From Candidatus Pacearchaeota archaeon (GTDB taxonomy: Archaea > Nanobdellota > Nanobdellia > Pacearchaeales > GW2011-AR1): 49,752 nucleotides of DNA. Location of the stretch: NCBI GenBank assembly GCA_019662115.1, contig JAIFVW010000005.1, positions 1 to 49,752 on the forward strand, given 5' to 3'. A program made the translations under genes and the position numbers. Below the pieces are notes generated by a model. The model was not told the origin of the DNA, ran no database searches, and saw only the letters and a list, made by a program, of their open reading frames with translations. Shown piece after piece: positions 1,382-21,197 of this stretch (position 1 is the first letter of the stretch; each line of letters begins with the position of its first letter).

Positions 1382-1431
1382 GCTTTTCTTGGGACAATCA
1401 TATTTAAAAAGTTACCTTCGTTTTTTAGGCA

Positions 1432-1959: not shown

Positions 1960-2906
1960 AGAGTTTAAGAAAACAGCCATTAGTAGGAATTATAATAGTC
2001 AATTGGAACAAGAAAGAAATGACTGCTGAGTGTCTAAACTCTTTAAAAAAGACAACTTACAAAAATTACAAGGTAATTCTTATAGATAATGGGTCCACAG
2101 ATGGAAGCGTTGAATACCTCAAAAAGATTAATCCTAAAATGGCAGTTATCAAACTTAAGAGAAACTACGGTTACACAGAGGGCACAAATGTCGGCTGGAA
2201 ATATGCTATGAAGAAAATGAAGGCAGATTACATCTGTGTTATGGATAATGATATTGTCACGGTGCAGCCACAATGGCTTGATCTCATTATGAATGAGCTT
2301 GTAAAGTCTCCTAAAAATGGACTTGGAAGCGGAAAGCATACTTTTCCTGATGGAAGACTGCAGACCCCTTATGTGGGAGCAGATGCCTCATATAAAAAAG
2401 ATACAGGCAAATATGACTTTGTTAAGGAAGTTGAAGCTTTTGTCGGGCCTGCGATGGTTATCAGCCGGGCAGTAATAGAAAAAATAGGATTTTATGATGA
2501 AAATTTCTTTTATGGCCCTAATGATCTAGATTTCTGTTTCAGGGCAAGGAAAGCAGGATTCAAGATAATTTATAACGGAAAGTCTCACTCAGTTCATATT
2601 GGAAGTGCTTCTGGGCTATCTCCTGCTAAAGACTATATTTACAGGCACCAGAGCGAAGGAATGATGATTTATTCATTCCGTTATGGATCGATTGGAGAAA
2701 AGTTAGGGATGGCTCTCCGCCAGTTGTCAAGAGCACTTTTCACTAGAAGAATAACTACCTCTCCTATATCATTTAGAAATACTATTATTCACTGGACCTT
2801 TCCTAAACGCCTAGTCTTCTACACTATATCATTATATCATGCATTGTTGAATTACAAAAAGGTAAAGACAAGTGATGAACCAGAAAAAATATCAGGGATA
2901 GAGTAG
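1956..2906 (+). CDS. Glycosyltransferase family 2 (GT-A fold)
   Basis: 316 aa. VGIIIVNWNKKE...VILIDNGSTDGS plus a VMDNDI (DxD) motif. The start overlaps the upstream stop (ATGA). Confidence 0.8.
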   Translation: MKSLRKQPLVGIIIVNWNKKEMTAECLNSLKKTTYKNYKVILIDNGSTDGSVEYLKKINPKMAVIKLKRNYGYTEGTNVGWKYAMKKMKADYICVMDNDIVTVQPQWLDLIMNELVKSPKNGLGSGKHTFPDGRLQTPYVGADASYKKDTGKYDFVKEVEAFVGPAMVISRAVIEKIGFYDENFFYGPNDLDFCFRARKAGFKIIYNGKSHSVHIGSASGLSPAKDYIYRHQSEGMMIYSFRYGSIGEKLGMALRQLSRALFTRRITTSPISFRNTIIHWTFPKRLVFYTISLYHALLNYKKVKTSDEPEKISGIE

Positions 2907-3749
2907 ATGGTGTATGCTTCAGTTGTCATTCCTGCTTATAATGAAGAAAGATATATCAAAAAAGCTCTTTCTTCCCTGAAAGAACAATCTTACAAAGACT
3001 TTGAGATAATTGTTGTTGATGATGGTTCAACAGACAGGACAAGAGATATAGTAAAAGCTTTCAAGGGCGTAAGGCTGCTTCAGGGCACGCATAAAGGTCC
3101 TGGAGCATCAAGAAATCTTGGAGCTTCAAATGCAAAAGGAGAGATTCTTGTATTTGTAGATGCTGACATGACTTTTGATAAAGATTATCTAAAAGAGTTG
3201 CTAAATCCCTTGAAAAAAGAAAAGAAATTGATAGGAACTAGCCATGGTTATGAATTTGCAACTAATCTGTCAAACAGATGGGCTGCGCTTTGGGGAAAAG
3301 TTCGATCAGATCCAAAAGATTTACATGTAATATTTAGAGCAATAAGGAAAAAAATCTTTCAAGAGAAGGGTGGCTTTGATCCAAAATATGGATATGCAGA
3401 TGATCAAACTCTCTGGTTAAAATATCATTTAAAGCCTAAAGCTGTTCCAGAAGCAATATGTTATCATAGGAACCCAGAAAGTCTAAGAGAAGTCTATCGC
3501 CAAAGTAAATGGATAGGTTCGTCTCTTAGGCTAATATCCTATCCATTTTCATTTCTAAATTATATTCTTCCTCTTTTTTTAGTTCTTGCCTTGCCCTTTG
3601 CAGTCTTATTTCTCTCTGTTCGCAAATCGTATAAAAATAGAAATCTGAGAAGTCTCATACCCTGGATGATCATATTTATGGCTGTGAGATACTGGGGAAC
3701 CCTATCTGGAATAGTACAAAAGGTATACCAAGGAAAAAATACTCGCTAG
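2907..3749 (+). CDS. Glycosyltransferase family 2 with C-terminal membrane anchor
   Basis: 280 aa. SVVIPAYNEERYI...IIVVDDGSTDRT...LVFVDADM, with two hydrophobic helices at the C-terminus. It starts directly after the previous stop. Confidence 0.8.
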   Translation: MVYASVVIPAYNEERYIKKALSSLKEQSYKDFEIIVVDDGSTDRTRDIVKAFKGVRLLQGTHKGPGASRNLGASNAKGEILVFVDADMTFDKDYLKELLNPLKKEKKLIGTSHGYEFATNLSNRWAALWGKVRSDPKDLHVIFRAIRKKIFQEKGGFDPKYGYADDQTLWLKYHLKPKAVPEAICYHRNPESLREVYRQSKWIGSSLRLISYPFSFLNYILPLFLVLALPFAVLFLSVRKSYKNRNLRSLIPWMIIFMAVRYWGTLSGIVQKVYQGKNTR

Positions 3750-6430
3750 CTGGAGTAAAAAGGATGAGGAATATTAAGAGGAAGAATAATGCATGTGCTG
3801 ACATTTTCTGATGATTCATTGCCCATTATGGAAATATTTCCACTTACATCTTTTTTGATAGCAATTTCTCCATACATATAGAGACTTTTTCCTTGTTTAT
3901 CTTTTAAGGAAGATGGAATAATCCTGACTGAGGCACGATTAGGCACAGTCAATTGAGAGGTCAGGGAAATTTTCTCAATAGTAAATATTTGTGTTTGATT
4001 CATGTAAATGGGGCGAGTGATGTATAGGGGAGATGTACAGCTCTCGTTCGTTTCGCTTGGTGTGAATGCAAAAGCGACATTTTCTCCTGAAATCTCTCTG
4101 AAAACCATAACCGGACGTTTTGCCTTTAATGATTCTTTGAAAGAGGAATAATAACTGATAAATAAGTTAATTTTCTCTGCTGTTAATGATGACTTATTGG
4201 AAGGGGATGAAACATTTACATTATCTAGAATAAGTGATCCGATAAATGGATTGACCGAAAGACTTGAAATATGGGTATAGAGATGAGTTCTCCCGTTTAC
4301 AAGATCTTCTACATTTCCAGGCCGAATGAACAAGATAAACCCAACAATCATTAAGGTAGCAATTAAGATAATTAATCCAAGAACGATATACCTTCTCCTA
4401 GGAAACTTTAGTCTTGATATTCGGGATCCAATTGGTAGAAGCATTTCATAAATTTTGTTCTTAATTCTAACAAAAACTATCAATAGTAATAACAACCCAA
4501 GGGAAAATACAATTCCAACACTTATTCCACTAGGCCAATATGATAATCTAACTGTATGACTTCCTGCTGGAATAAATAGTTTCATTCTGCCTAAACTATC
4601 GTTAGTAATTAAGGCTCTATTGCCATCAACTCTTGCATAATATCCGGGCTTAAAGAGAAAATTAAGGGTAATATTATTGCTGGAGGAAAAACTAGTATTA
4701 AATGTAACTCCACTATCAATCATCTTATAGGGAATAGCTGAATCTGAGAAAACATAGCTTCTTGATCCTGGAACAAGAAGAACCAGTACTTTATCCTGAT
4801 ACAATTTGGTTAGATTAGAAAGCTCTGGATGTGAAGGCAAACTATCTCTAGGTATAATGATATACTTCACCCCATATTCTGCAATGCGGGAAATATTCAG
4901 CTTGATATCAGAAACACCAAACCTTGCAACCGGAATGTTTTCACCAGTTAATTTGTCACTAAACGGTTCATATCCTCCAATACTATCTATCCCATAATAA
5001 GTCGCGAAGTCCTGAGATAATAGCGGCGCTTCAGGAAAGTTAGATGTTGGGGTGGAAAACTTGATTCTCTGGGGATTTACAGAGCTGTTTGTAAAGACGC
5101 TTATAACTCTGCCTTCAGATATATTGTATGGCAATTTACCTAAAGGAATGCTGTCTCCATAATAGGCCCATGCAACTGATGTGCTTACTATTATATGATA
5201 GACAATAAGAAGTGCAAAGAAGGTTAAAAAAACTCCAATAACCGTTTTGCTTTTTATTTTTTCAAGCAGAGGAGATGCAGCAATTGCTCCATAAGAGATT
5301 ACAAAGAAGTGAACAAAGAAGGTTATTTTGAATGAAGATGTAAAATTCTTTATAATAGGAAGGAATGCTCCTATAAGATAAATAAGGCCTATGTATCCGA
5401 AACTCAATATTATTGCCAAAATACCCAGCCATAATAAGGGATGAGCCTTTCTAAGAGATTTTCCTCCATATATTTTGAATGAATTAAATAATCCGGCTAA
5501 GAATAATAAGAAAAAAAGTGTTCCAGCATAATAAATATGAATAAATGCGGGAGAGGAGTATGAGAATACATTTGAACTTTTAACAAAAGGGTATACAAAT
5601 AGTGAACCAAGAACAAATTCATGTGGAAACGCAGGCAGGCTTAGTGCATAGTTGATTATCCCATTATTTCCCCTTGCAGAATCTCTTATAACATATAATT
5701 GAGAAATCAAAAGAGGCCCCGCAATGATGAGAGTTATGACTAATGAAATAATATATTTTTCTATATGACTTCCACTCTTTTTCCACTTGTTCTGATATAA
5801 TGTCAGCCATCCATACAACAATTCAAAAAGACATGCAAATGCAAAATATTGTGCGTTCCCCGCATAGAAGTAAATTCCCCTAGTAATCCCAAGCCAAATA
5901 GTAAACTTCAGGCCTTTTTTATTTAGCTTATCATGTAGCAGGAAAATCAATGGCATAAATACAACACCAGGAATAACATAATACCAGCTGGCACTTGCAA
6001 TTAAAACATATCCAGAAAAAACGAATGCAATTCCAGCTAGGAAGGAAATGAGGCTATTCTTGGTCTTTGGAATAAGAAAATAAAACGTGGCAACAAATCC
6101 AGCAACAAGGTGCAATAGAACGAATATCTCAAAAAGTAAAAAGTCGTTGTGAAAGACATAATGTGCTAAAAAGTAAGAAAGAATCATTGGAGGATAAAGA
6201 ACAGCATAAGTTCCAACCTCAAAAATCCTTGATCCCGTATACTGATGAAAGTTTAAGAGAGGAAAACTGCCATGGAAGAGTTGTTTCATCCCTTCAAGAG
6301 TTATAGGAAGGAATTGTGCAAGGTTATCATCTTTGGTAAAGTTGTAAGGATGAACATACTCTATCAATCCAAATAAGGCACAAACTATTACTATTCCAAT
6401 TATAATATAGGTATTTTTGTTCATTTTCAC
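3746..6430 (-). CDS. Large polytopic membrane protein, candidate GT-C glycosyltransferase (YfhO-like layout)
   Basis: 894 aa. About 13 TM helices lie in the first ~420 aa, followed by a ~200-aa soluble block rich in N-x-S/T sequons. Two more TM helices and a ~180-aa C-terminal domain follow. It is last in the long minus-strand glycan operon. The family assignment rests on architecture only. Confidence 0.4.
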   Translation of the reverse strand: MKMNKNTYIIIGIVIVCALFGLIEYVHPYNFTKDDNLAQFLPITLEGMKQLFHGSFPLLNFHQYTGSRIFEVGTYAVLYPPMILSYFLAHYVFHNDFLLFEIFVLLHLVAGFVATFYFLIPKTKNSLISFLAGIAFVFSGYVLIASASWYYVIPGVVFMPLIFLLHDKLNKKGLKFTIWLGITRGIYFYAGNAQYFAFACLFELLYGWLTLYQNKWKKSGSHIEKYIISLVITLIIAGPLLISQLYVIRDSARGNNGIINYALSLPAFPHEFVLGSLFVYPFVKSSNVFSYSSPAFIHIYYAGTLFFLLFLAGLFNSFKIYGGKSLRKAHPLLWLGILAIILSFGYIGLIYLIGAFLPIIKNFTSSFKITFFVHFFVISYGAIAASPLLEKIKSKTVIGVFLTFFALLIVYHIIVSTSVAWAYYGDSIPLGKLPYNISEGRVISVFTNSSVNPQRIKFSTPTSNFPEAPLLSQDFATYYGIDSIGGYEPFSDKLTGENIPVARFGVSDIKLNISRIAEYGVKYIIIPRDSLPSHPELSNLTKLYQDKVLVLLVPGSRSYVFSDSAIPYKMIDSGVTFNTSFSSSNNITLNFLFKPGYYARVDGNRALITNDSLGRMKLFIPAGSHTVRLSYWPSGISVGIVFSLGLLLLLIVFVRIKNKIYEMLLPIGSRISRLKFPRRRYIVLGLIILIATLMIVGFILFIRPGNVEDLVNGRTHLYTHISSLSVNPFIGSLILDNVNVSSPSNKSSLTAEKINLFISYYSSFKESLKAKRPVMVFREISGENVAFAFTPSETNESCTSPLYITRPIYMNQTQIFTIEKISLTSQLTVPNRASVRIIPSSLKDKQGKSLYMYGEIAIKKDVSGNISIMGNESSENVSTCIILPLNIPHPFYSS

Positions 6431-7047
6431 TTAACAATGCCAGAATTTTCCCACAAAGGAACGAACTTTTCATCAGTCATGACAGCATCAAGCTTGAACC
6501 CTAGTTCCTTTATGTATTCTATGTATCGTGGAATGTCTTGAGGCCTTCCCCATCTTTCAGGGCATACAAGACAGGTCTTAAACGGCTTTAATCGATTTAC
6601 AATATCATGTGTAAGAGGTAGAACAGTATTTGTGTCGATCCATACCCAATCAAGTAATGGCTTGGCATCTTTTATCTGAGCTTCTACCATCTCAATTGGC
6701 TCTGCCTCACTGTAACGCACGGCAATCTTTCTTACTCCTTCTTTTCGTGTAGCTCTATAAATGTAAGGAAATTCGACATCAAGCAAGAAATAGTTCCCGA
6801 TATTGTGTTTATTTGCTAAATCTATAATCCTACTTTCATATCCAGCTTCCTTGACGTTGAATATGATAAATGCATGATGGAATTCTCTCAAATAGTCTTC
6901 AAGCCCATCATACTTTGAGGGCTTATCAATAGGATCGTGATTTAACAGCATCTTATCTCCATATCCCCTAATATCAATTTCAACTCCGTATTGAGAGGGA
7001 ACTTTCCTCAAACCTTCAATCGTATTGATTCGATGTCGGATTATCAC
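6427..7047 (-). CDS. GDPD/PI-PLC-like phosphodiesterase (TIM-barrel) family protein
   Basis: 206 aa. MIIRHRINTIEGL...YGVEIDIRGYGDKMLLNHDP matches the glycerophosphodiester phosphodiesterase pattern HR...E-D-R...HD. It has a 4-nt overlap with the downstream gene. Confidence 0.4.
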   Translation of the reverse strand: MIIRHRINTIEGLRKVPSQYGVEIDIRGYGDKMLLNHDPIDKPSKYDGLEDYLREFHHAFIIFNVKEAGYESRIIDLANKHNIGNYFLLDVEFPYIYRATRKEGVRKIAVRYSEAEPIEMVEAQIKDAKPLLDWVWIDTNTVLPLTHDIVNRLKPFKTCLVCPERWGRPQDIPRYIEYIKELGFKLDAVMTDEKFVPLWENSGIVK

Positions 7048-7081
7048 TTTATCGGCTACAACTAGACTTATTTAAGCTTTA

Positions 7082-7792
7082 TTACTGCCCGTAGTAGGCT
7101 TTTCCGCCATGTTTTCTTAGATAATGCTTGTCATGGAGATATGACGGAATAGGCTTGATTTTCGAATTAAGCCCAAGTGTTATGAAATTCATTTCAGCAA
7201 CTTTTTCAAGAGCTACCGCGTTCCTTAGTGCTTCCGATAATGTTCTTCCCCATGCAAAAAGCCCATGATGCTGTAAAAGGCATGCTGGAACTTCCAAAGG
7301 ATTGATATTGTTTTTCTTGAATGTTTCCACAATTGCTTTTCCCAAGTTAGCCTCATAGTCTTTTTCCACAAGCTCTTTCTTCAATACAGGAACGACTGGA
7401 ATAGGTCCGTAAAAGTAGTCTGCATGAGTAGTTCCCAAACAATCAATAGGAACTCCCGCCTGTGCAAAGCTCGAAGAATAATTAGCATGTGCATGTACAA
7501 TTGCACAAACATCCTTGAAATTCCTATAAATTTCCAGGTGAATTGGAGTATCAACACTAGGTTTTCTTGCTCCCTCTAAAGGATACCCTTGTATATTGAC
7601 CACAACAACATCCTGAGGGGTTAGAGAAGGATAAGGAACGCCGCTTGGCTTAATGGCCACACATGACCTGCTTTTGTCAATACCACTTACATTTCCTAGA
7701 GTAAGTGATGCCTCTTCTCTTCCTACAAGCCCAAGGCGAACGATCTCTTTATTCGCCCTCATGACATCGAATCTCAACTCCTTTAAAATCAT
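7082..7792 (-). CDS. araD: L-ribulose-5-phosphate 4-epimerase (class II aldolase/adducin family)
   Basis: 236 aa, collinear with E. coli AraD as I recall it. Shared blocks are WGNVS-like LGNVSGIDKSR..VAIKPSGV, PSVDTPIH, IVHAHANY, GTTHADYFYGPIP, HHGLFAWG and the C-terminal LHDKHYLRKHGGKAYYGQ. Confidence 0.85.
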   Translation of the reverse strand: MILKELRFDVMRANKEIVRLGLVGREEASLTLGNVSGIDKSRSCVAIKPSGVPYPSLTPQDVVVVNIQGYPLEGARKPSVDTPIHLEIYRNFKDVCAIVHAHANYSSSFAQAGVPIDCLGTTHADYFYGPIPVVPVLKKELVEKDYEANLGKAIVETFKKNNINPLEVPACLLQHHGLFAWGRTLSEALRNAVALEKVAEMNFITLGLNSKIKPIPSYLHDKHYLRKHGGKAYYGQ

Positions 7793-7855
7793 AAAAATGA
7801 GGATTGCTGATCCTATTAAAGGCTTTCTTTAGATTTTCATATAAAAGAGTAGTGA

Positions 7856-8575
7856 CTATTGCTTAAGCTTCTTTTTCAATTCAAATGTAAACTTGATTGT
7901 TCTTTTGATAAATTTAAATCTGGCTTTCATTCCAGTATTCCATGCACTTTTACCATGAATCCTTTTCCCAAAAAACACAGGTAATCTCTTAATTTCATAG
8001 CCATTTTTTCTTGCAAGATAATAAGAATACAGATCGAATGAAAAGTCGTGTGGAGGATCTCTCATAAGTTTAAGGAAAGAATGATGGAACAGGTTAGGTT
8101 GGGCGTTTATATCATACAGTTTTTGCCCAAGGACAAAAGTTTCAAAGATAGACATTCCAAGAGTATTGATTAGAGTGTCTAGTATTGGTCTTCCGTATCT
8201 TTTGCCTTTAACATATGTCTTCTGTGGGTTTTTGCTATTTTTCATTAAATTATATGCTTTAATAGTATCTTGTGGATCAGTCTGAAGATCAGCATGAGTC
8301 CAGCAAAGAAACTCTCCCTTGGATTCCTTTAGACCATTATATATGGAAATACCATAACCTCTCTGGGTAGTAAAGAGATTTTTCATGAATCTATTCTTTT
8401 TAGCGTATTTTGCAAGTTCATCTCTTGTTTTGTCCTGGCTTCCTGAATCTTCTACAAAAATAACCTCAATATCAATTTTTTTGGCTATCTCTGAATATTT
8501 TTCAACAATTAATTTAATATTCTTCTCCTCATTGAATACAGGTAGCACAATAGAGATTTTAGGAATAGTTTTCAA
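7856..8575 (-). CDS. Polyprenol-phosphate glycosyltransferase (GT2, DPM1/GtrB/ArnC-like)
   Basis: 239 aa. ISIVLPVFNEEKNI...VIFVEDSGSQDKT...THADLQTDP follows the short soluble DPM1-like GT2 layout. Confidence 0.7.
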   Translation of the reverse strand: MKTIPKISIVLPVFNEEKNIKLIVEKYSEIAKKIDIEVIFVEDSGSQDKTRDELAKYAKKNRFMKNLFTTQRGYGISIYNGLKESKGEFLCWTHADLQTDPQDTIKAYNLMKNSKNPQKTYVKGKRYGRPILDTLINTLGMSIFETFVLGQKLYDINAQPNLFHHSFLKLMRDPPHDFSFDLYSYYLARKNGYEIKRLPVFFGKRIHGKSAWNTGMKARFKFIKRTIKFTFELKKKLKQ

Positions 8576-9383
8576 AGTATTTGTTCCAGAGAGCTTGTTC
8601 GTGCTTGCTCATATTTATTTTGTTTAAATCTCCTAATTTATAGAAATAGGAAATCTTTTCAAATTCATGAAATTCTTGAGGCGTTCCCCATCCAACTAGA
8701 AGATCCACATCAAAAATGCAGCTTTTCTTGCCAAGCAAATTTAAGGCTAAAGGCAAATTGTCAAGGTAATATTCATTGTTTGTCTTTATGTTATCACTCA
8801 TCATTTTTCTAATTCCGTCATAAAGGATTTTCTTGGAACGGATCCAGAAGGTTGCAGCCACAACGTGATCATTAAAGGGATTGTCAGAAATTGGAACTTT
8901 GACGCTCATATCCTTTATTGTCTTTCCATCATGATCAAGAACGGCATATCCCCACGCTTTAGGGTTTGCAGAAATACGCTGGTCTTTTGTAAACGTCCAT
9001 AAAATACAGTCGTATTTTGGATCTTTCTTCAAAGATTCGTATTTATTTTCATCATAAACAAAACCCATGTCACATCCAGCAATAAATACTTCATCATCAT
9101 CTTTAATATATTGTTCTGCACAGAATATGCTTGCTCCTCCAAGAAGATCTTTATCTACAGTTATTATTGCATTAGGAATTTTCTCTTTTATTGCCTTGTG
9201 AATGTGAAATTCATCAATATGCTCCTGTCGAACAACAAAAATCCATGTATCGCTCTCTGGCAAGCAGTCTATTACTTTCCATATCATAGGATCTCCATCA
9301 ATGGGGATAAGAGGTTTAGGGAGTATATATCCAGCTTCAGAAAATCGTTTTCCTCTTCCCGCCATTGTAACGAGATTTGCCAT
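8559..9383 (-). CDS. Sugar-phosphate nucleotidyltransferase-like protein
   Basis: 274 aa. The N-terminal MAGRGKRFSEAGYILPKPLIPI is the G-x-G-x-R...K-P pyrophosphorylase signature. It has a 17-nt overlap with the downstream GT2. Confidence 0.55.
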   Translation of the reverse strand: MANLVTMAGRGKRFSEAGYILPKPLIPIDGDPMIWKVIDCLPESDTWIFVVRQEHIDEFHIHKAIKEKIPNAIITVDKDLLGGASIFCAEQYIKDDDEVFIAGCDMGFVYDENKYESLKKDPKYDCILWTFTKDQRISANPKAWGYAVLDHDGKTIKDMSVKVPISDNPFNDHVVAATFWIRSKKILYDGIRKMMSDNIKTNNEYYLDNLPLALNLLGKKSCIFDVDLLVGWGTPQEFHEFEKISYFYKLGDLNKINMSKHEQALWNKYFENYS

Positions 9384-9398
9384 ATTTACGTATCCTGT

Positions 9399-10052
9399 CT
9401 ATGCTTTATAAAGCTTACCCGTTAAAGGAAAGGATTTTACCAAAACAGGAATATTAGAATCCAGGGAAGACTTTCTATAAAGGGCAAGTGAGTCAAAAAA
9501 GAACCTTTCCCCTACATTTTTGCCTATCTCTCTGGAAACGGATTCAAATTTGTTTTTATCTATAGAGGAGATTGTAATATGAGGGATCCATCCTTTTCCG
9601 ATATAAGGGAAACCATATTTATTGATATTATCCTTTTGTTCTGCAGAGAATTTTGAATATGCCTCTGATTGCTCATTGAAGAGTATATTTTTATTCAAGC
9701 TTTTAATTCTTGCAATCACCTTCAATTGTAACTCGCGCAACCTATCGCTGTCAGGCTTGGAAAAACCATAGGTAAAAGTATGGCCTTCTGTTAAGGCATC
9801 ATCATAAAAGACATTCTTGTGATCAAGTGAAATGGAAATCTTAGGTGTTAAAGATGCAATGCTTTTGATAATAGAGAGAACTTCATTTACTTTATTTTTT
9901 TCAAATGATGTTACAATTAATGTTGAATGGGGATGATGAGTAAGGTACTTCTGATCTCCTGCAATCTTATAGACTATCTTCTTTTCAGCAAGAATTCTTT
10001 TCTGCATTCCTTCATCTGGAATCAATGCAATAAAAAAATGCTCAATTTCCAT
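9399..10052 (-). CDS. 2H phosphoesterase superfamily protein (LigT-like)
   Basis: 217 aa with two H-x-T/S-x motifs about 115 aa apart (HPHSTLIV and IPHITISS). It has an 11-nt overlap with the upstream 833-aa fusion gene. Confidence 0.55.
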   Translation of the reverse strand: MEIEHFFIALIPDEGMQKRILAEKKIVYKIAGDQKYLTHHPHSTLIVTSFEKNKVNEVLSIIKSIASLTPKISISLDHKNVFYDDALTEGHTFTYGFSKPDSDRLRELQLKVIARIKSLNKNILFNEQSEAYSKFSAEQKDNINKYGFPYIGKGWIPHITISSIDKNKFESVSREIGKNVGERFFFDSLALYRKSSLDSNIPVLVKSFPLTGKLYKA

Positions 10053-12543
10053 TAATCATCAGCTCACGATAGTTATCGAGAGAGGCGTTGATATAAAGTT
10101 TTCTATCTTTAGTCATTACAAACTTAATTGGCTCGTTATGGCTAATCTTGATCATATGCCATTTGCTTTGAGGTATGCCGAGATACCATCCTATAAAGTT
10201 GCGAATTGGAACATTATGTGTTGAAACAAGAATGCTTTTTCCAGGTATGGAAGGTGTTTCTTTAAGAAAATCTAGGAATCTCTTTAGAACCTCTTGATTA
10301 TTCTCCCCATCTGGAAAATGAGCATCTTCTTCTCTCTTCCATGCCTCGATAATTTTAGGATGATTTTCTATAAGATAGTTAATGTCCTTTCCTTCCGCAT
10401 CTCCATACTTCTGTTCCTTCAATCTATCATCATAAGTTATTTCATTGCTGATTAGAGAGGCAGTATCCTTAGCTCTCCTCATAGGTGAAGAATAAACCTT
10501 GTCTGCTCTAATAGTCTGCAGTTTCTTTGCCTCTCCTTTAGATAGAGCGATAATTGAAGGATCCCTTCCCTGCCCTAAAAACACTCCTGGCTTGTTTTTT
10601 GCAGTTTTGGCATGCCTTAAAAGTACTATTTCTGTAGAATCATCATAAAACATCTTCTTGAATTGCTCTTCGAAGTCTTGAAGAAATGCTTGTACATTCT
10701 TCGTCAGATATTCCTGCTTAAGCTTTCTTCTCTCCCTCTTTGCCTTTAAAAGAATAGAAGCAAAACTTCTGTGTTTATCCTGATTTTTTGGAAAAAGCGT
10801 AAAATACTTCTTGAATAGCTCTTTTACCTCATAGTGGTGATTGCTCTTATAATATAACTTGACAAAATTAGACATTGTAAACTTGATTACTTGATATGCC
10901 CTTTCAACTCTGTCATAATCCTCCATTTTCTTATACTCCTTTATTTCCTCAACATTCTTTCCCTTGAACTCATATCTTCTGTAGGAGGTATGCTCTTTAG
11001 ATATCTCATTTGATAGTTCCTGAACTCCTCTTCTTGAATTAATGAAATTCTCTGGTTCAAGGCGTAAAACTGGATAAATGCTCGCCAATGGCTTTTTGAA
11101 GTAGATTTTAGAGCTTTCCCATCCAAAACAAGTAAAGGGACTTTTCATGACATGCTGTTTATGGGACTCAATATCATAAATCATTAGATGAAATACGATT
11201 CTATCCTTAGGAAATTTAAGAGGTCCAAAAGTGGTGTTAACTACAACCTGATATCCATATGTAGATTCGAGATATTGCCTATGTGATTCAAATCTTTCAA
11301 CAATGCTATCAAACTTCTCTCTTGTCAATTTGTCTACAATAATTACTACATCTATATCATTAATTCCTTTAAGCTTCTTTCCTGTCGCAAATGACCCAAC
11401 AATAGATCCAGATTCAATAAATGTAAATGAATCAAGAGTTGTAGGAATATAATACAATATATCATGCCTTAATCTCTTGCTAATGTCACTATACCTTGCG
11501 CTTGTCTTTAACTCCATAAAGGATTCTACAGGATCATGTGATGCAAGAATACCAGAAGAGGAAACAATATAGTTGGCATCAATCCTTCCTATATTGGTTG
11601 GCTTTACCCCTCCATCAAAAATGATGTCGAAATTATGATTTTTCTGCAGCTTTCTTACTTCTTTTAATAATTCCAAAGATCTAGGATCAAAGAGCTGTCC
11701 AGACTTTCCAATCTCTCTTATCCCCATTACCTGTACAAATGAAAGTTTGCTAAGATAGGGCTCTATTGAGTTTATATCATCCTGCATTGTTAATGCAATG
11801 CCTGCTTTCTTCCCATATTTCTCAATCAAATCAATTACATCTGAAAGAGGTTCATTTAGATTAGGATGAACAATAATGGTATCGACTTTATTATGGATCT
11901 GTTCTATCCATAGAGTAGGAGTTTTTGACATTATATGTATCATCTTTTGAATCCTCCATACTGTGTCAATTCGATCCATAACAGAGAGGTCAACAGGAGA
12001 TGCATCCTTCTTGATTGTAGAGTCGATAATATCAATATGTATGAAATCAGCATAGTTCTTTATTTTTTCATATATCTTTTCAACTGACTCCTCTTTGTTT
12101 AGATAAACTGCAACTCCTACTCTTTTAACGAAATCAAATGTGATTTTTCTGTGAGTGGCATAACTGGCCATAAATACCATTCCGGCTGTAATGAATCTTA
12201 AGGTAGAATAACTAAAAGGAAGGCTTTGGGCTAGAGCCTTAATTAGTACTAGATTAAGAACAAGTGCAATAGTAGAAATAATTAAGAATAATCCAAATGT
12301 TCTTGCGTTCTTGGAAGAAGGAACCTTAAAATTAAGCTTCGCATTTAGGAAAAAGCTCAATAATACTCCTCCAGCAAATCCAATCCCGATTCTAAGCAAT
12401 AAAGGCACTGTACGAGCAGCAAGCTGATTTACTATAATAATTTCAAGAAGTACAGAGAAGAAGCCTATAGCAATATAGTTTAGAAGATATCTAAATCGAT
12501 AATACCAGAAGTGCAATGTCCTTAAATTACCTCGAAATACCAT
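10042..12543 (-). CDS. Four-domain fusion: GtrA-like membrane module / ribulose-phosphate 3-epimerase-like barrel / Pol-beta nucleotidyltransferase / histidine phosphatase
   Basis: 833 aa. Residues ~1-135 form 4 TM helices ending HRKITFDF (GtrA layout; nt ~12139-12543). Residues ~140-345 read ADFIHIDIID, IHIMS, VHPN and DIIFDGGVKPTNIGRI, which parallel the RPE blocks HFDVMD, VHLM and EVDGGVKVNNIGEI (nt ~11509-12126). Residues ~365-470 carry GSIVGSFATGKKLKGINDIDVVIIVD (nt ~11134-11451). Residues ~640-833 carry LLRHAKT...SSPMRRAKDTA...VSTHN (nt ~10045-10626). Confidence 0.6.
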   Translation of the reverse strand: MVFRGNLRTLHFWYYRFRYLLNYIAIGFFSVLLEIIIVNQLAARTVPLLLRIGIGFAGGVLLSFFLNAKLNFKVPSSKNARTFGLFLIISTIALVLNLVLIKALAQSLPFSYSTLRFITAGMVFMASYATHRKITFDFVKRVGVAVYLNKEESVEKIYEKIKNYADFIHIDIIDSTIKKDASPVDLSVMDRIDTVWRIQKMIHIMSKTPTLWIEQIHNKVDTIIVHPNLNEPLSDVIDLIEKYGKKAGIALTMQDDINSIEPYLSKLSFVQVMGIREIGKSGQLFDPRSLELLKEVRKLQKNHNFDIIFDGGVKPTNIGRIDANYIVSSSGILASHDPVESFMELKTSARYSDISKRLRHDILYYIPTTLDSFTFIESGSIVGSFATGKKLKGINDIDVVIIVDKLTREKFDSIVERFESHRQYLESTYGYQVVVNTTFGPLKFPKDRIVFHLMIYDIESHKQHVMKSPFTCFGWESSKIYFKKPLASIYPVLRLEPENFINSRRGVQELSNEISKEHTSYRRYEFKGKNVEEIKEYKKMEDYDRVERAYQVIKFTMSNFVKLYYKSNHHYEVKELFKKYFTLFPKNQDKHRSFASILLKAKRERRKLKQEYLTKNVQAFLQDFEEQFKKMFYDDSTEIVLLRHAKTAKNKPGVFLGQGRDPSIIALSKGEAKKLQTIRADKVYSSPMRRAKDTASLISNEITYDDRLKEQKYGDAEGKDINYLIENHPKIIEAWKREEDAHFPDGENNQEVLKRFLDFLKETPSIPGKSILVSTHNVPIRNFIGWYLGIPQSKWHMIKISHNEPIKFVMTKDRKLYINASLDNYRELMINGN

Positions 12544-12587: not shown

Positions 12588-13259
12588 CTACGAAGTGATC
12601 ACAAAAACAATTCCGCCAACACCATATCTTGTTATCTCTTCATATGTAATCTTCTGCGTTTTGGTAAATTCTTCAAATGCAGCTCTTACTCCCTTTTTCT
12701 TGTCCCCAGCATAATTGAAATAATCATCAAGTATCAATACAGTTCCCTTACCAATAATCGGCTTTAGAAAGTTAAATGCCTCTTTTGAGGAAGAGTAGAG
12801 ATCGCAATCCATCATGACAATTGCAGCTTTGGATATACCATGTGCTTTAGCTCCCTTTTTCAGCGTTTCCTGGAAAAAACCTTTTACTAGCTTTACCTCT
12901 GGAAATTCCTTAAACCTATTCCTTATTACAGAAAACTTTGTTGAGAAGTCAAAGGAGGTATAAAATGGGTGTTCATCTCCTTTCTCAGGCTTCATTCCTT
13001 CAAAAGAGTCAAATCCATAGAACTTCATAGGGGTTTTTCCTATTTTTCTCCAGTAAGTTGCAGCTCCCTTCAGGCTTGTTCCTTCATAGACGCCAAATTC
13101 AAGATAGTCTCCCTTTACTCCCTCAATTTCCTTATAGAATAAGAATTTCTTGAGAACGTCATGCTTCTCAAAATTATGTATCATGCTTGGAGATATATAA
13201 GAATTAAACCTTATGTATAGGTCCTGTGCTGCTAGGAAGATCTTATGGAGAAAGTCCAT
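12588..13259 (-). CDS. TylF/macrocin-O-methyltransferase-like SAM-dependent methyltransferase
   Basis: 223 aa. GDYLEFGVYEGTS...FYGFDSFEGMKP...VMMDCDLYSSSKEAFNFL...LILDDY matches the TylF family pattern. A TTTATATA box lies ~25 nt upstream at ~13279-13286 on the minus strand. Confidence 0.7.
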   Translation of the reverse strand: MDFLHKIFLAAQDLYIRFNSYISPSMIHNFEKHDVLKKFLFYKEIEGVKGDYLEFGVYEGTSLKGAATYWRKIGKTPMKFYGFDSFEGMKPEKGDEHPFYTSFDFSTKFSVIRNRFKEFPEVKLVKGFFQETLKKGAKAHGISKAAIVMMDCDLYSSSKEAFNFLKPIIGKGTVLILDDYFNYAGDKKKGVRAAFEEFTKTQKITYEEITRYGVGGIVFVITS

Positions 13260-13289: not shown

Positions 13290-14849
13290 CTAACTTGAAA
13301 TAATCTTTCTCTTAATAGCCCTAACAATTTCCCAATCATGCCTATCCAAAGACTTAGTGGCAAAAAGAATGCCTACATAAATAACACAAAGTACTATCGC
13401 TATCAAAACCGAGTTAATTATATTAATGCTGATTTTACCATGAATAAATATGACTGCAATGGCACATACAAGTCCAGCGGCCAAGATATTGATCATCTTT
13501 CTTCGCAATGGAAATATTCCGGTATTCTTGTATGCCTCTATTACAAACAAAAGGCTAAAGACACTAACTGAAATCAATGTCGCTATTGCAGCTCCATTAA
13601 TTCCTAAACTATTATCAATAGACCCTATTCTAGGCCTAGGAATTAATGCTATATCAAGAATTATGTTTATTATCCAGGCGACTATGCCATTGGTAAGTAT
13701 TGTTCTAGACTTCCCTAGCGTGTAAATAAGTCGGTTTGATACAGCTGTGAGAGCAGTAATGAGGGTTCCAAGAGTAAGTATTTGAAGTGCAGTTGAGGCC
13801 TTAATATATTCACTTCCCCAAATTGCTAAAATTGTCCTTTCTGGAAAGACAATGATAAATATTACCAAAGGAAGGTTTATCATAAGAATCCATTTAGAAA
13901 CCTGCTTACTTAGCTCCTTAATAACCTCATAGTTTTTCCTTGCATATTCTTTGGTAATAAGAGGGAAGAAGAGCTGCATGAAAAGATCCGGTACTATATT
14001 TAGAAGCATTGCCAAAGGGAGCGCCGCGTTGTAGAGTCCAACTTCTGCTGGGCTCTTGAAGTATCCAAGCATGAATGAGTCTACCCAGTAAAAAGCCATA
14101 TAAACTACGCCAAAAAAGAGCATAGGACCAGAATAGGAAAGAAATTCAGCTCGAAGCCTCTTTCTTTGATTCTTTTCAGGGAATTCTTTGAAGAATATTT
14201 CTGGAAGATAAGCCTTACATGCAAAATAAGATGCAATAAGTATTGCAACTATGGAAAGAACATAAGAATAGATGATCGCACTGCTTGAAACGCTTATTAC
14301 CAATAATAGCAGTATGGCGATCACTTTTACAACATTTTGAAGAATATTAAATATAAAAGAATACCATCCTATCTTTTCATAGGCTCTTAGAAAATCAAGA
14401 AATATGTTTCCTAATATTGAAAGAGGAAGAGCAATACTGAAAACCTTAAGATAAATTATTAAGACTGAGGAATGAAAGATCCCAAGAGCAATACTATCTG
14501 CAAAAACATAAAGCAAAATTCCCGCAATTATGGAGCTTACTGCTGTGGTTGCCAGAGACCAGTATCTAAGGTAGGAAATTTTCTTATTTTCCTTATTTGC
14601 CCTATAGATTGCTACATACCTTACAATTCCTTCATTGAATCCAAAAGTGGCAACAGTGATAAATATGCCAAGCACTGCAACGGCCAGGGAAAATAGGCCG
14701 TATTCTTGTGGACCAAACTGCCGTGCAATTATAATCCTGTAAATATAAGATAATAGCTTTGATAAGACTACTCCTATCAACACAACAAATGATGATTTTG
14801 CGAGTAATTTTAGAGAACTGTCAACATTTGACGAAGTCTTTTTTTGCAT
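13290..14849 (-). CDS. Oligosaccharide/polysaccharide flippase (MOP superfamily, Wzx-like)
   Basis: 519 aa with about 14 hydrophobic helices and the layout of a polysaccharide biosynthesis protein. It is first in the minus-strand operon running 14849 -> 3746. Confidence 0.75.
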   Translation of the reverse strand: MQKKTSSNVDSSLKLLAKSSFVVLIGVVLSKLLSYIYRIIIARQFGPQEYGLFSLAVAVLGIFITVATFGFNEGIVRYVAIYRANKENKKISYLRYWSLATTAVSSIIAGILLYVFADSIALGIFHSSVLIIYLKVFSIALPLSILGNIFLDFLRAYEKIGWYSFIFNILQNVVKVIAILLLLVISVSSSAIIYSYVLSIVAILIASYFACKAYLPEIFFKEFPEKNQRKRLRAEFLSYSGPMLFFGVVYMAFYWVDSFMLGYFKSPAEVGLYNAALPLAMLLNIVPDLFMQLFFPLITKEYARKNYEVIKELSKQVSKWILMINLPLVIFIIVFPERTILAIWGSEYIKASTALQILTLGTLITALTAVSNRLIYTLGKSRTILTNGIVAWIINIILDIALIPRPRIGSIDNSLGINGAAIATLISVSVFSLLFVIEAYKNTGIFPLRRKMINILAAGLVCAIAVIFIHGKISINIINSVLIAIVLCVIYVGILFATKSLDRHDWEIVRAIKRKIISS

Positions 14850-14933
14850 TCTATTAGAGAGAAAGTATGTTTTTATTTGTTACTAATCATCTTATGCAGG
14901 CAACTTTATATACGAACAATACTTGCCTTGCCG

Positions 14934-16748
14934 ATGGCTGAAGAGCAAAAAAAAGAAACTTCAAACTATCTAAACTCTTTTATAGATTTCATTTTTTCAG
15001 ATGATGAAAGAAGATGGCTTATTTTGATATTTATCTTTGGATTCATTCTAAGATTTATAGCAGTTATGAATAATTCTCCTGTGGCTGACGAAATGGTTCA
15101 TGGAAGCCATGCTCTTGGTATATCAACACTGCGTCCTCTAAGCACAATTACTCAGGGCCCAATCTGGTTTTACTTAACTGACATATCATACAGAATATTT
15201 GGTGTTCATCTATGGAGTGGAAGAGGACTTTCATTATTATTTGGATCTTTTTCAATACTTCTTGTCTATCTTGTTTCACATTTATTTTTTGACAAGAAGG
15301 TTTCTCTGGTGGCCGCATTCTTGTTTGCAATATCCCCTTTTCAGATAATGTGGGCTAGGATATATATGGACGAGTCCTTATTGTTTTTTATCCTTTTAGC
15401 GACGTATTTGTTCCTTCGGGATTACAGGACAAAGGGATATATTACTCCATTAAGTGCCTTGTTCCTTGGGATAGGTATATTGATAAAAATAATATCAGGA
15501 GTCTTTATCATAGTATTTTCACTCTTTGTCCTGATCAATATCTACAACAATAGAAAAGACAATAAATTGTTCAAAAAGAGCATTAAGAATGCAGTTTACT
15601 TCTTTATCATAATACTTATTTCACTAATTCCATTGCTGGCGTACAATTACTTCCTTTACAAGTCAAAGGGAATACTTGATCTTCCATTTGCAATGTACTT
15701 AGGGGTAAATACTCAAGTCTATCAAGGCTCAGGACTGGCTCACGGATCTGGCTTCCCTATAGGGCAGCTTCCAGGCAATCTCAAGGTAATATTATTCGAC
15801 TATTTCATAAAAGATGAATTAATCCTTTTCATACTTTTCATCCTAGGGCTAATTATTTTTATAAGGGAAATAAAGAAAAATGCATTTGAGAAGGCGTTTA
15901 TATTGACATTGTTTGGATTCTCTCTTATAGCTATCGCCGCATCCATTCTTCTCAATACGCATTATACATATTTCGTAGCTATTTTTGCCATGATTGGAGC
16001 TCCAGTCATACCTTTAATTGCAAGGAAAATCAGCGCAAGGCATGTGAAAAATACAGTTATAGTGATTCTTATAGCTATAGCGATTTTCAATATTTATCAT
16101 ATGTGGGACGTTCTATCAAGCAAGAGCGCAACAGAGAAATTAAGGGATTTTGCAATATCAAATATAAAGGACACTGACCTTGTGATAGTCGACTCTAGAA
16201 TATACAGAGGAAACACCGCATGGATGTTCAACGATAAAGCATATTTAGATGCAAGTATTCTCTCTAGCGCTATTCAATATCTTAACAGCCTTAATGGCAC
16301 GGCGGCATCTGTCCATACATATTTTGTTGAATGTGCAATTGATGATTGCGGATGGGGAAACATAAAAGACAGCCCTGATGTAAACAGCTCTATGGAGATG
16401 CTTGTTGACACTTTCAAGAACCTTTCAAAGAACTCTTTCGCAATAAAAGGAGGAGGCAAAGACAGTCAGGAATACGATTCCTCTAAGTTGGACCAATATA
16501 TAGTATATGACACGTATGTTGCTCTCAATCCCCAGATAATATATCTTGCTCAGCAAAATCACAACTTCTTCTTTTATGAGATTCCAAGAAATAAAAATCC
16601 TGAGAAGGCATTTGACTATTACATAGTAGATGGAGCATCCGGAGATCTTTTGAACTTTATAGCCTATACTGTATTATACCTATTGATTGCGCTAGCAGCA
16701 CTCTCACCAATATATGTAATTTACATTCTTTACAAGATCAAACATTAA
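14934..16748 (+). CDS. GT-C glycosyltransferase (ArnT/PMT-like, family 39/83 type)
   Basis: I prefer the ATG at 14934 (MAEEQKKE...) over the track's non-ATG start at 14844, because a CTTTATATA box sits at 14904-14912. The protein is multi-TM, has a first-loop acidic motif PVADEMVHG, and ends in a C-terminal soluble domain plus a final TM helix. Confidence 0.65.
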   Translation: MAEEQKKETSNYLNSFIDFIFSDDERRWLILIFIFGFILRFIAVMNNSPVADEMVHGSHALGISTLRPLSTITQGPIWFYLTDISYRIFGVHLWSGRGLSLLFGSFSILLVYLVSHLFFDKKVSLVAAFLFAISPFQIMWARIYMDESLLFFILLATYLFLRDYRTKGYITPLSALFLGIGILIKIISGVFIIVFSLFVLINIYNNRKDNKLFKKSIKNAVYFFIIILISLIPLLAYNYFLYKSKGILDLPFAMYLGVNTQVYQGSGLAHGSGFPIGQLPGNLKVILFDYFIKDELILFILFILGLIIFIREIKKNAFEKAFILTLFGFSLIAIAASILLNTHYTYFVAIFAMIGAPVIPLIARKISARHVKNTVIVILIAIAIFNIYHMWDVLSSKSATEKLRDFAISNIKDTDLVIVDSRIYRGNTAWMFNDKAYLDASILSSAIQYLNSLNGTAASVHTYFVECAIDDCGWGNIKDSPDVNSSMEMLVDTFKNLSKNSFAIKGGGKDSQEYDSSKLDQYIVYDTYVALNPQIIYLAQQNHNFFFYEIPRNKNPEKAFDYYIVDGASGDLLNFIAYTVLYLLIALAALSPIYVIYILYKIKH

Positions 16749-19548: not shown

Positions 19549-19608
19549 GATAAATAACGCAAAAATGGGTGCAAAATAGGATTTATAAATAATTGTATGT
19601 TAATTTAA

Positions 19609-20751: not shown

Positions 20752-20825
20752 TTTATAAATTTTATCAGGTTATAGGAAGAGCCAAGTAGAAAACATTTAT
20801 AAATTTCTCTTGATCCTACCAGTTT

Positions 20826-21140: not shown

Positions 21141-21197
21141 ATTTTATAAGGTCTTCATCACCAACAGACTTATAACCTTCATTTTAGAGCTCAGAGT

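Follow-up and report, generated by a model that had tools for sequence, protein, structure and literature searches.

The window considered here, a stretch of 49,752 nucleotides from a Candidatus Pacearchaeota archaeon (contig JAIFVW010000005.1), carries a cassette of six consecutive genes, which code for: a four-domain fusion protein, a 2H phosphoesterase, a GlmU/RmlA-type nucleotidyltransferase (NTase), a family 2 glycosyltransferase (GT2), an L-ribulose-5-phosphate 4-epimerase (AraD) and an enzyme with the glycerophosphodiester phosphodiesterase (GDPD) fold. This cassette is one version of a widespread system, in which an invariant core, made up of the GlmU/RmlA-type NTase, a DPMS/GtrB-type GT2, a GtrA membrane domain and the GDPD-fold enzyme, is combined with either of two mutually exclusive front ends. 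On balance, we favor the view that the cassette supplies a pentose derived from ribulose-5-phosphate on polyprenyl phosphate, for glycosylation of the cell surface by GT-C-type enzymes; the exact product is one we infer, and the donated pentose is probably a ketopentofuranose. A first-pass annotation of the window, made from its sequence, had read these genes as a candidate machinery for an undescribed teichoic-acid-like or L-pentulose-derived surface decoration in an archaeon. The functional unit, its catalytic equipment, the start from pentulose phosphates and the want of an earlier description all stand, whereas the teichoic-acid-like polymer, the trimming roles assigned to the phosphoesterases and the link to archaea do not.

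One core and two mutually exclusive front ends

A genome scan anchored on the GDPD-fold family recovered the cassette from at least 580 GTDB species, and 50 long loci were classified by their gene content. The GDPD-fold gene is present in all 50, the NTase in 48 and the GT2 in 46. Thirteen of these loci have the front end seen in the window and 30 have a second one, termed here the PRK-type after its phosphoribulokinase (PRK); none has both, and mixed front ends are likewise absent across all loci (0/146). In the 13 long window-type loci the four domains of the fusion protein (GtrA, a ribulose-phosphate 3-epimerase (RPE)-like domain, a Pol-beta NTase and a histidine phosphatase) and the 2H protein always occur together, with AraD present in 10. 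The 2H gene is found in all window-type loci and in no PRK-type locus.

The PRK-type front end is composed of: a phosphoribulokinase; a haloacid dehalogenase (HAD) enzyme resembling ribulose-1,5-bisphosphate (RuBP) 5-phosphatase; a second NTase; and, in some loci, a RhaD-like aldolase. The best NCBIfam match of the kinase is phosphoribulokinase (188-205 bits) and that of the HAD is ribulose-1,5-bisphosphate 5-phosphatase (168-198 bits, 17-22 orders of magnitude stronger than the next family), and these assignments hold in the loci of the candidate phyla radiation (CPR) and of DPANN as well. Thus, the alternative front end independently points to ribulose-5-phosphate, in line with the earlier suggestion that the pathway starts from pentulose phosphates. 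Exactly one GlmU-type NTase is encoded in 49 of 49 window-type loci and two in 26 of 28 PRK-type loci. The Pol-beta NTase therefore corresponds to the second NTase of the PRK-type, and both versions have two nucleotidyl-transfer steps, each of them also possessing one phosphatase and one class II aldolase-fold enzyme. Part for part, the histidine phosphatase corresponds to the HAD and AraD to the RhaD-like enzyme. In all of these cassettes the PRK domain has, fused to its N-terminal side, a membrane domain of ~360 aa with 7-10 transmembrane (TM) segments, which displays a faint similarity to the GT-C protein ALG3 (E 0.0017; locus L078 6839-8992, L068 9456-11438 and L087 10748-13921); the L087 protein also carries a class II (RhaD-like) aldolase-fold domain.

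The window-type version was further surveyed with an alignment of homologues of the fusion protein, which retrieved 64 loci from species-representative genomes; with three metagenomic loci these make up a set of 67. A scan of the genome collection with the single protein sequence returned no related loci, and the alignment query was needed. The carriers of the 64 loci include DPANN, one Thermoplasmatota genome, Patescibacteria, SAR11, Bacteroidota, Planctomycetota, Verrucomicrobiota, Actinomarina and other lineages. Near the fusion gene the 67 loci encode a 2H protein (58), the GT2 (58), the NTase (54), AraD (52) and the GDPD-like protein (49), most of the absences being at contig ends. The comparison of genomes that the first-pass annotation had proposed as a check thus finds the same six genes together in dozens of unrelated genomes, and for this reason their grouping is not a matter of chance. 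Elsewhere the components are fused to one another: NTase-GT2 (L003 and L010), His-phosphatase-2H, with the 2H-His-phosphatase arrangement seen in L008, L041 and L045, as well as NTases and 2H proteins joined to a Pol-beta plus His-phosphatase unit ([PolB + HisPhos]-NTase and 2H-[PolB + HisPhos]). Co-conservation, translational coupling and these fusions together bear out the idea that the six genes form a functional unit.

In addition to the core and front end, 44 of 68 loci encode, no more than 3.5 kb from the cassette, a protein that has seven or more TM segments and a length of 400 aa or more. A PMT_2 domain is detectable in 5 of 15 large polytopic proteins tested in homologous loci, and PMT_2 proteins flank the cassette in L001, L005, L054 and L095. 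Twenty loci have an extra small GtrA gene.

Homologues of the GDPD-fold protein with 35-39% identity also occur on plasmids of cultured Proteobacteria, namely an IncR plasmid of E. coli, pHbal01 of Hirschia baltica and a plasmid of Azospirillum brasilense. On these the GT2 (45% identical to that of the window in the case of E. coli), the GDPD-fold gene, GtrA and GlmU-type NTase domains sit with other partners: a membrane-anchored PRK-like kinase, a RuBP-5-phosphatase-like HAD and a RhaD-like class II aldolase-fold protein. RPE, the Pol-beta NTase, the His-phosphatase and 2H are missing from the plasmid versions. The E. coli locus (L068; NZ_CP145712.1, 6022-14984) is a complete PRK-type cassette on a 33-kb IncR plasmid beside IS26. 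It is found in only 2 of 5426 complete E. coli genomes, with human stool and a bullfrog as their sources, a rarity that excludes it as the source of the xylulofuranose (Xulf) in the O95/O97 antigens. By BLASTP its NTase is a tandem of two domains like the 274-aa NTase of the window; hhalign found no shared ancestry of either the N-terminus of its kinase or the C-terminus of its NTase with the fusion protein.

A neighbor-joining tree of the GDPD-fold proteins shows the two types interleaved, with at least 12 switches between them, a rough count given that the tree has no support values; the copy from the window falls among PRK-type CPR sequences, with ~70% identity. The cassette is clearly horizontally mobile and has crossed the domain boundary. 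Carriage by phages was not seen among 50,697 phage records. Most carriers are bacteria (CPR, SAR11, Bacteroidota, Planctomycetota and the E. coli plasmid) and archaea are a minority, so that the cassette is not the archaeal speciality for which it was first taken.

Predicted activities of the component families

The 206-aa GDPD-fold protein has no sequence match in Pfam, NCBIfam or the PDB, whether searched with any of 24 family members or with a profile of all 24. Its AlphaFold2 model has a pLDDT of 96.9, and the top eight Foldseek matches of this model are all GDPDs (E 6e-6 to 1.5e-4, TM up to 0.75, ~12% identity; the match with the best E has a TM of 0.74). Within the family H5, E23, D25 and H37 are invariant and R6 is conserved in at least 90% of the members, which defines an HR...ExD...H signature; its correspondence with the catalytic and metal-binding residues of GDPDs was judged by inspection and not by superposition. 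The 'GDPD-like' label of the first-pass annotation is hence upheld for fold and motif through structure prediction, with no membership in the sequence profile (PF03009). The family comprises 1707 clusters in the protein database, each annotated as 'hypothetical', and its gene is usually located directly after that of the GT2.

The profile of the core NTase family retrieves the NDP-sugar pyrophosphorylase 4evw (4e-13), followed by GlmU, HddC, IPCT and RmlA, and the protein has the MAGxGxRF...PKP motif. To judge from these features it belongs to the NDP-sugar pyrophosphorylase class (GlmU/RmlA-type) and not to the TarI/IspD-type. The best PDB match of the GT2, covering its whole catalytic domain, is the Dol-P-Man synthase (DPMS) of P. 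furiosus (5mlz), with GtrB (5ekp) and ArnC next; this places it in the polyprenyl-phosphate glycosyltransferase class (DPM1/GtrB/ArnC) and predicts transfer to polyprenyl phosphate. Unlike DPMS, whose C-terminal TM domain has the GtrA fold, the GT2 of the cassette has no TM domain. A GtrA_DPMS_TM domain is encoded in the next-but-two gene as the N-terminus of the fusion protein and can supply the membrane part of the GT2; the catalytic and TM domains are accordingly found on separate polypeptides. A further difference from the P. furiosus enzyme is that the first Asp of the DxD motif is a His in the cassette GT2 (HAD-L-Q).

Among the front-end enzymes, AraD aligns with its E. coli counterpart along the entire length (residues 4-236) at 48% identity, and the equivalents of E. 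coli D76, H95, H97, D120, H171 and Y229 are all conserved in the alignment. Of these, we take D76, H95, H97 and H171 to be the Zn ligands of the class II aldolase fold and D120 and Y229 to be the acid/base residues. Against the stricter equivalog model TIGR00760 the protein scores 259 bits, under the cut-off of 389. PDB searches with the RPE-like domain of the fusion protein return RPE structures. Across 25 homologues there is no variation at H169, D171, D174, H203, M205 or D310-G-G, and the alignment places the H-x-D, H-x-M and D-G-G motifs of RPE at H169/D171, H203/M205 and D310; the canonical MDGxFVPN (GxFVPN) substrate loop is replaced by IDSTIKKDASPVDL, and the score against the TIGR01163 equivalog is 78 bits, under the cut-off of 212.6. 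Going by its motifs, the domain is an equipped but divergent relative of RPE.

The histidine phosphatase domain has the RH...R...E...H core, and its nearest solved relatives are PspA, the alpha-ribazole-5'-P phosphatase CobC and fructose-2,6-bisphosphatase. In the Pol-beta domain, the AlphaFold2 model of which has a pLDDT of 91.7, the GS...DxD...D triad is invariant. Its structural matches are all remote and include MNT, the aminoglycoside adenylyltransferase AadA ANT(3'')(9) and HalB. The structure search gave no match to LicD, fukutin or FKRP, and the possibility that the domain is a phosphotransferase of that type was dropped for this reason. Following the third catalytic Asp, at aa 452-475 of the fusion protein (window ~11119-11190), there is a cluster of invariant or near-invariant residues, H-x8-H-x2-H-C-x2-S-P-F-T-C-x2-W, which may be a metal (zinc) site; no counterpart of it was seen in the remote structural matches of the domain. 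The 2H protein has both H-x-T motifs (PHSTL and PHITI), with H42 and H158 invariant and T44 of the first motif (H42-x-T44) conserved in at least 90% of the family, the profile of which matches the LigT protein PH0099 (1vdx, 1.6e-5) and YjcG. AraD, the RPE-like domain, the Pol-beta domain, the histidine phosphatase and the 2H protein thus all retain their catalytic residues. The first-pass annotation had named catalytically dead AraD and RPE-like enzymes as a ground for giving up its reading; in neither is this borne out by the predicted active-site residues. The co-occurrence of a Pol-beta NTase and a 2H protein also suggested a defense system, a reading that was discarded as there are no PADLOC matches.

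Proposed pathway, competing explanations and known relatives

The invariant partners are a DPMS/GtrB-type GT2, GtrA and polytopic proteins, some of them of the GT-C type, and it is because of this that we propose the logic of a lipid-linked single-sugar donor. The core NTase would make an NDP-sugar and the GT2, to which the GDPD-fold enzyme is coupled, would load the sugar onto dolichyl or polyprenyl phosphate; having no anchor of its own, the GT2 would dock on the GtrA-type domain, provided here by the N-terminus of the fusion protein. GtrA-type or Wzx proteins would flip the lipid-linked product, which would then be used by an adjacent polytopic GT-C-type enzyme, in the window an 894-aa protein and/or a PMT_2 protein. 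On the side of the front end, a ketopentose 5-phosphate taken from the pentose-phosphate pool would receive its configuration from the RPE-like domain and AraD, the histidine phosphatase would strip the 5-phosphate and let the sugar close to a furanose, and the Pol-beta NTase with the 2H protein would put an activated phosphate back on at the C1/C2 end. Most other genomes would use for this purpose the membrane-anchored PRK, the HAD, the second GlmU-type NTase and the RhaD-like aldolase: ribulose-5-phosphate would be converted to RuBP and then to ribulose-1-phosphate, freeing the 5-OH for furanose formation, and the RhaD/FucA-type enzyme could invert C4. The conversions of ribulose-5-phosphate to RuBP and of RuBP to ribulose-1-phosphate are established chemistry in haloarchaea (PMC9700705). 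The window-type front end, which has no kinase, would reach the same intermediate or a stereoisomer of it.

One specific route accounts for every part of the cassette; it is speculative, and we regard it as doubtful. It invokes a movement of phosphate from O1 to the anomeric O2 via a ketofuranose 1,2-cyclic phosphate. O1 of the ketopentose would be nucleotidylated, or phosphorylated and then nucleotidylated; the anomeric O2 would attack that phosphate to yield the 1,2-cyclic phosphate; the 2H and GDPD-fold enzymes would serve to form this ring and to open it to the anomeric 2-phosphate; the core NTase would turn the latter into an NDP-ketopentofuranose; and transfer by the GT2 would give polyprenyl-P-ketopentofuranose. 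We know of no anomeric kinase for 2-ketopentoses, and RNase-A-like cyclic-phosphate chemistry is typical of both the 2H and the GDPD/PLC folds.

The first-pass annotation had instead envisaged a teichoic-acid-like phosphodiester polymer, with the GDPD-like and 2H proteins as trimming enzymes. Both of these are without signal peptides and would therefore be cytoplasmic and biosynthetic. A related proposal is that a pentulose phosphate is attached through a phosphodiester, in the manner of ribitol-phosphate or glycerol-phosphate decorations, or, in its strong form, that a true poly(pentulose-phosphate) polymer is made. One NTase would produce an NDP-pentulose linked through its terminal phosphate, the other an ordinary NDP-hexose for the GT2, and the GDPD-fold enzyme or the Pol-beta domain would act as a phosphotransferase onto a lipid-linked hexose. 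Such a scheme draws on the presence of two nucleotidyltransferases and three phosphoester enzymes in the cassette and on the translational coupling of the GDPD-fold gene to the GT2; enzymes of the GDPD/PLD fold can, moreover, catalyze transphosphatidylation. It is also the case that ketose phosphates can be cytidylylated at the terminal phosphate, as in CDP-6-fructose and CDP-xylulose (PMC10918830). However, the enzymes expected of it are not in evidence: TagF/TarL, LicD/FKRP, CDP-alcohol phosphotransferases and Stealth proteins are absent from the cassette and its recurrent neighbors (a weak CDP-OH_P_transf gene lies near one locus only, L003); the cassette has no polymerase, no TagGH-type exporter and no alditol-phosphate reductase, with no reductase at all among its conserved genes; the NTase is of the GlmU/RmlA-type and not of the TarI/IspD-type; and the Pol-beta domain has no structural likeness to LicD or FKRP. 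The proposal further leaves no role for the His-phosphatase/2H pair or for the RuBP-5-phosphatase-like HAD. As both front ends have a likely 5-phosphatase, the 5-phosphate would be removed and not kept as a linking phosphodiester. We therefore set aside the teichoic-acid-like polymer and consider a phosphodiester-linked pentulose unlikely.

A donor with the same lipid-linked GT-C logic could also carry an aldopentofuranose such as D-arabinofuranose or D-ribofuranose. Here a ketopentose 1-phosphate would be isomerized to a pentofuranose 1-phosphate by the GDPD-fold barrel, then nucleotidylated and transferred, amounting to a route independent of phosphoribosyl pyrophosphate (PRPP) to a donor resembling decaprenylphosphoryl-arabinose (DPA) or decaprenylphosphoryl-ribose (DPR). 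GT-C enzymes that use polyprenyl-P-arabinofuranose are well known, and the NTase is in the sugar-1-phosphate class. Isomerizations of the ribose-1-phosphate to ribulose-1-phosphate type exist, with MtnA and R15P isomerase as examples (see PMC9700705), and the donor of ribofuranose (Ribf) in E. coli O antigens is unknown (PMC7685785). Yet the cassette encodes nothing from the known aldose-ketose isomerase families, the HR...ExD...H that the GDPD-fold enzyme conserves is a hallmark of phosphodiesterases, and the need for two NTases and a 2H protein is left unexplained; an aldopentofuranose thus appears quite unlikely. Far less probable is a soluble glycoside akin to a compatible solute, with the GT2 glycosylating a small phosphorylated acceptor that the His-phosphatase would dephosphorylate, as GpgS and GpgP do for glucosylglycerate. 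Weak matches of the GT2 to glucosyl-3-phosphoglycerate synthase and of the His-phosphatase profile to mycobacterial GpgP (4pz9, 2e-9) suggest it. Against this, the GtrA membrane domain is never missing and shares a polypeptide with enzymes of the cassette, the PRK of the other version is membrane-anchored, the best relatives of the GT2 are polyprenyl-phosphate glycosyltransferases, and the cassette sits in glycan islands beside polytopic transferases and flippases.

A lipid-linked ketopentofuranose donor has its own difficulties. It rests on sequence, structure prediction and gene context, from which the enzyme activities and the carrier glycans are predicted, and much of this evidence would also be compatible with an aldopentofuranose or a phosphodiester-linked product. 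About one-fourth of the window-type loci have no AraD, and the RPE-like domain, with its canonical substrate-capping loop gone, may act on another ketose phosphate. The PRK and HAD score under their NCBIfam cut-offs, so that their substrates are ones we infer, and most flanking membrane proteins show no detectable GT-C signature. The role proposed for the GDPD-fold enzyme is without precedent, and action of the Pol-beta NTase on a sugar hydroxyl is argued by analogy from a remote likeness to aminoglycoside nucleotidyltransferases (TM ~0.35).

The proposed donor pathway has partial parallels in several known systems. The pairing of a DPM1/GtrB-type GT2 with a GtrA-family protein is shared with: GtrA/GtrB/GtrC of Shigella and Salmonella phages; CsbB/GtcA/YfhO of Bacillus and Listeria; and ArnC/ArnE-F/ArnT. 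As in the Gtr-type systems, the cassette behaves as a mobile add-on in glycan loci, and a large polytopic protein, a candidate GT-C transferase, is usually encoded alongside. Unlike them, it does not rely on a ready-made UDP-Glc, UDP-GlcNAc or UDP-Ara4FN but brings its own sugar-supply pathway of five to seven enzymes, with GDPD-fold, 2H, Pol-beta NTase and His-phosphatase components (or PRK and HAD) that are not known from any Gtr-type system, and a GtrA domain fused to soluble enzymes. The DPA pathway of Corynebacteriales likewise converts a central pentose phosphate to a polyprenyl-phosphate-linked pentofuranose by 5-phosphate removal and epimerization, serves GT-C users and has an associated GtrA-like protein (Rv3789). 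That pathway, however, starts from PRPP with a UbiA-type transferase and epimerizes on the lipid (DprE1/E2); none of these enzyme families is present in the cassette, where a nucleotide sugar appears to be involved. The HAD and the class II aldolase-fold enzyme of the PRK-type score best against the RuBP 5-phosphatase and ribulose-1-phosphate aldolase families of the haloarchaeal non-carboxylating pentose bisphosphate pathway, from which a step from RuBP to ribulose-1-phosphate is suggested (PMC9700705). The latter pathway is catabolic and ends in dihydroxyacetone phosphate and glycolaldehyde (PMC9700705), whereas here the enzymes are joined with NTases and a GT2 in a glycan cassette and score under the equivalog cut-offs. 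The CDP-ribitol, CDP-arabinitol and CDP-glucitol pathways (TarI/TarJ, AbpA/AbpB and C. jejuni HS:5) also start from a central ketose phosphate and use nucleotidyl activation, but do so with an IspD-type cytidylyltransferase and a reductase and keep the phosphate as a linking phosphodiester (PMC10918830); the cassette has no reductase, a GlmU/RmlA-type NTase and a 5-phosphatase.

What is known, then, is the overall architecture of a polyprenyl-phosphate GT2, GtrA and GT-C; what is new is the built-in sugar-supply pathway, its enzyme families and the two interchangeable front ends. Full-text literature searches found no description of the cassette, in keeping with the first-pass annotation, which had called it undescribed; an Arctic SAR11 genomic island considered as a possible earlier account consists of unrelated genes. 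The signature GDPD-fold protein of so widespread a system is still 'hypothetical' and has no Pfam family. Its carriers include abundant but little-understood small-celled lineages (CPR/Patescibacteria, DPANN and SAR11), the surface glycans of which probably govern host attachment and phage recognition. The repeated swapping of two unrelated enzyme sets before one core, across the divide between archaea and bacteria, is a clear natural case of non-orthologous displacement and offers a way into the chemistry. According to a review of E. coli O antigens, it is not known in what activated form xylulofuranose and ribofuranose are donated, and the genes for this lie outside the O-antigen clusters (PMC7685785); xylulofuranose is also found in chlorovirus N-glycans (PMC9614988). 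If the product is a ketopentofuranose, the cassette would settle how such residues are activated. Should the phosphate-migration route be true, it would fill a long-standing gap by identifying the donor from which the xylulofuranose or ribulofuranose residues of O antigens, capsules and chlorovirus N-glycans derive; it would further mean that a ketopentose surface decoration is common to CPR, DPANN and SAR11, and that two non-homologous front ends lead to the same intermediate. The versions from the E. coli plasmid and from cultured Hirschia baltica make the cassette experimentally tractable.

Genomic setting of the cassette

The features of the cassette and its immediate surroundings are collected in the table. 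The positions that the first-pass annotation had given for the six genes, all on the minus strand, are exact in a check of the open reading frames (ORFs), and Pfam and NCBIfam agree with its domain calls for all but the 206-aa protein. The junctions between the six genes and with the gene for the 894-aa protein include overlaps of 4, 17 and 11 nt, the remainder being gaps of 15-63 nt; the gene for the 894-aa protein overlaps that of the GDPD-fold enzyme, the last of the cassette. The run of minus-strand genes extends from the Wzx gene to the gene for the 894-aa protein.

Table. Position and supporting evidence of the cassette genes, the domains of the fusion protein and the flanking genes in the window
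Feature	Position	Strand	Evidence
Fusion protein, 833 aa	10042-12543	-	GtrA_DPMS_TM + Ribul_P_3_epim + NTP_transf_2 + His_Phos_1
GtrA/DPMS-type four-helix membrane domain of fusion (aa 23-136)	12136..12477	-	PF04138, 45.5 bits
Divergent ribulose-phosphate 3-epimerase-like barrel of fusion (aa ~153-343)	11515..12087	-	PF00834 (158-332), 84.7 bits
Pol-beta-type NTase core and helical domain of fusion (aa ~350-635)	10639..11496	-	PF01909 NTP_transf_2 (381-445), 25 bits
Histidine phosphatase domain of fusion (aa 639-833)	10045..10629	-	PF00300 His_Phos_1 (639-804), 101 bits
2H (LigT-like) cyclic phosphodiesterase, predicted	9399..10052	-	PF13563, 29.2 bits vs cut-off 27
GlmU/RmlA-type sugar-phosphate NTase, 274 aa, core component	8559..9383	-	NTP_transf_3
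Polyprenyl-phosphate glycosyltransferase-type GT2 without TM domain, core component	7856..8575	-	PF00535
L-ribulose-5-phosphate 4-epimerase (AraD)	7082..7792	-	NF006047, 280 bits vs cut-off 257
GDPD-fold (PLC-like TIM barrel) enzyme, 206 aa, core component	6427..7047	-	AlphaFold model + Foldseek
Polytopic membrane protein, 894 aa, candidate GT-C-type transferase	3746..6430	-	~11 predicted TM segments
TylF-type sugar O-methyltransferase	12588..13259	-	PF05711, 66.7 bits
Wzx/MurJ-type flippase	13290..14849	-	PF01943
PMT_2 GT-C glycosyltransferase, divergent neighbor	14844..16748	+	PF13231, 60 bits

In the 67 loci the genes for Wzx, TylF, the PMT_2 protein and the 894-aa protein are not conserved with the fusion gene, Wzx being found in only 4. 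A TylF-like gene nevertheless lies inside or beside the cassette in 9 of 52 window-type and 8 of 28 PRK-type loci; as it recurs in both types, the one in the window is probably a real accessory of the cassette. The 894-aa protein has only a faint match to YfhO (E 0.005) and its homologues adjoin the cassette in L013, L018 and L021; we regard it as a candidate transferase of the GT-C type for the lipid-linked sugar, with the PMT_2 protein as a possible second user of the donor. The mechanically assigned starts of the divergent Wzx (-) and PMT_2 (+) ORFs overlap at 14844-14849, and the PMT_2 ORF opens with TTG. Its real start is more likely an internal Met ~30 codons downstream (MAEEQKK...), which would leave a short promoter region shared by the two genes.

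The cassette is housed in a glycan island of ~20 kb, further parts of which are located at window 278-3749 and 16738-20751. These encode a GT4, three further GT2s, an RmlD-like reductase, a sugar C-methyltransferase (Methyltransf_13/14, 17543-18775) and a short-chain dehydrogenase/reductase (SDR)-family epimerase/dehydratase, which suggests a pathway for a methyl-branched deoxysugar unrelated to the cassette. A 282-aa ORF at 24763-25611 (-) adjoins three tRNA genes and covers only positions ~70-296 of the 413-position nucleotide-sugar dehydrogenase model, lacking both the N-terminal Rossmann part and the C-terminal domain. Truncation or splitting of a UDP-glucose dehydrogenase gene may account for this ORF.

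The host is an archaeon, as indicated by RNA polymerase subunit D, which scores above the equivalog cut-off (42115-42810), and a SecF of the archaeal type (23615-24499). A bacterial-type GroEL is encoded at 34435-36039 (+), with a phmmer E of ~1e-190 against GroELs and no thermosome in its top 60 PDB matches; this chaperonin probably reached the DPANN-like archaeon by horizontal transfer, and the bacterial host that it might suggest is ruled out by RNA polymerase subunit D and SecF.

The cassettes of other genomes also lie among genes for unusual modifications. In L003, a locus from Woesearchaeota, positions 380-8264 directly upstream of the cassette encode a phosphoenolpyruvate mutase, a thiamine pyrophosphate-dependent decarboxylase, an NTP transferase, a 1059-aa fusion of radical-SAM, aminotransferase and methyltransferase domains and a weakly matching CDP-alcohol phosphotransferase. 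The same genes are seen in L010, and in both loci they look like a pathway for decorating a glycan with (methylated) aminoethylphosphonate. In L001, on a 652-kb DPANN contig, the cassette is surrounded by methyltransferases and an unusual number of radical-SAM genes (764-3195, 7421-8797, 18178-19539 and 20748-21869), some of them B12-binding or SPASM-type, which hints at further unusual tailoring of the glycan.

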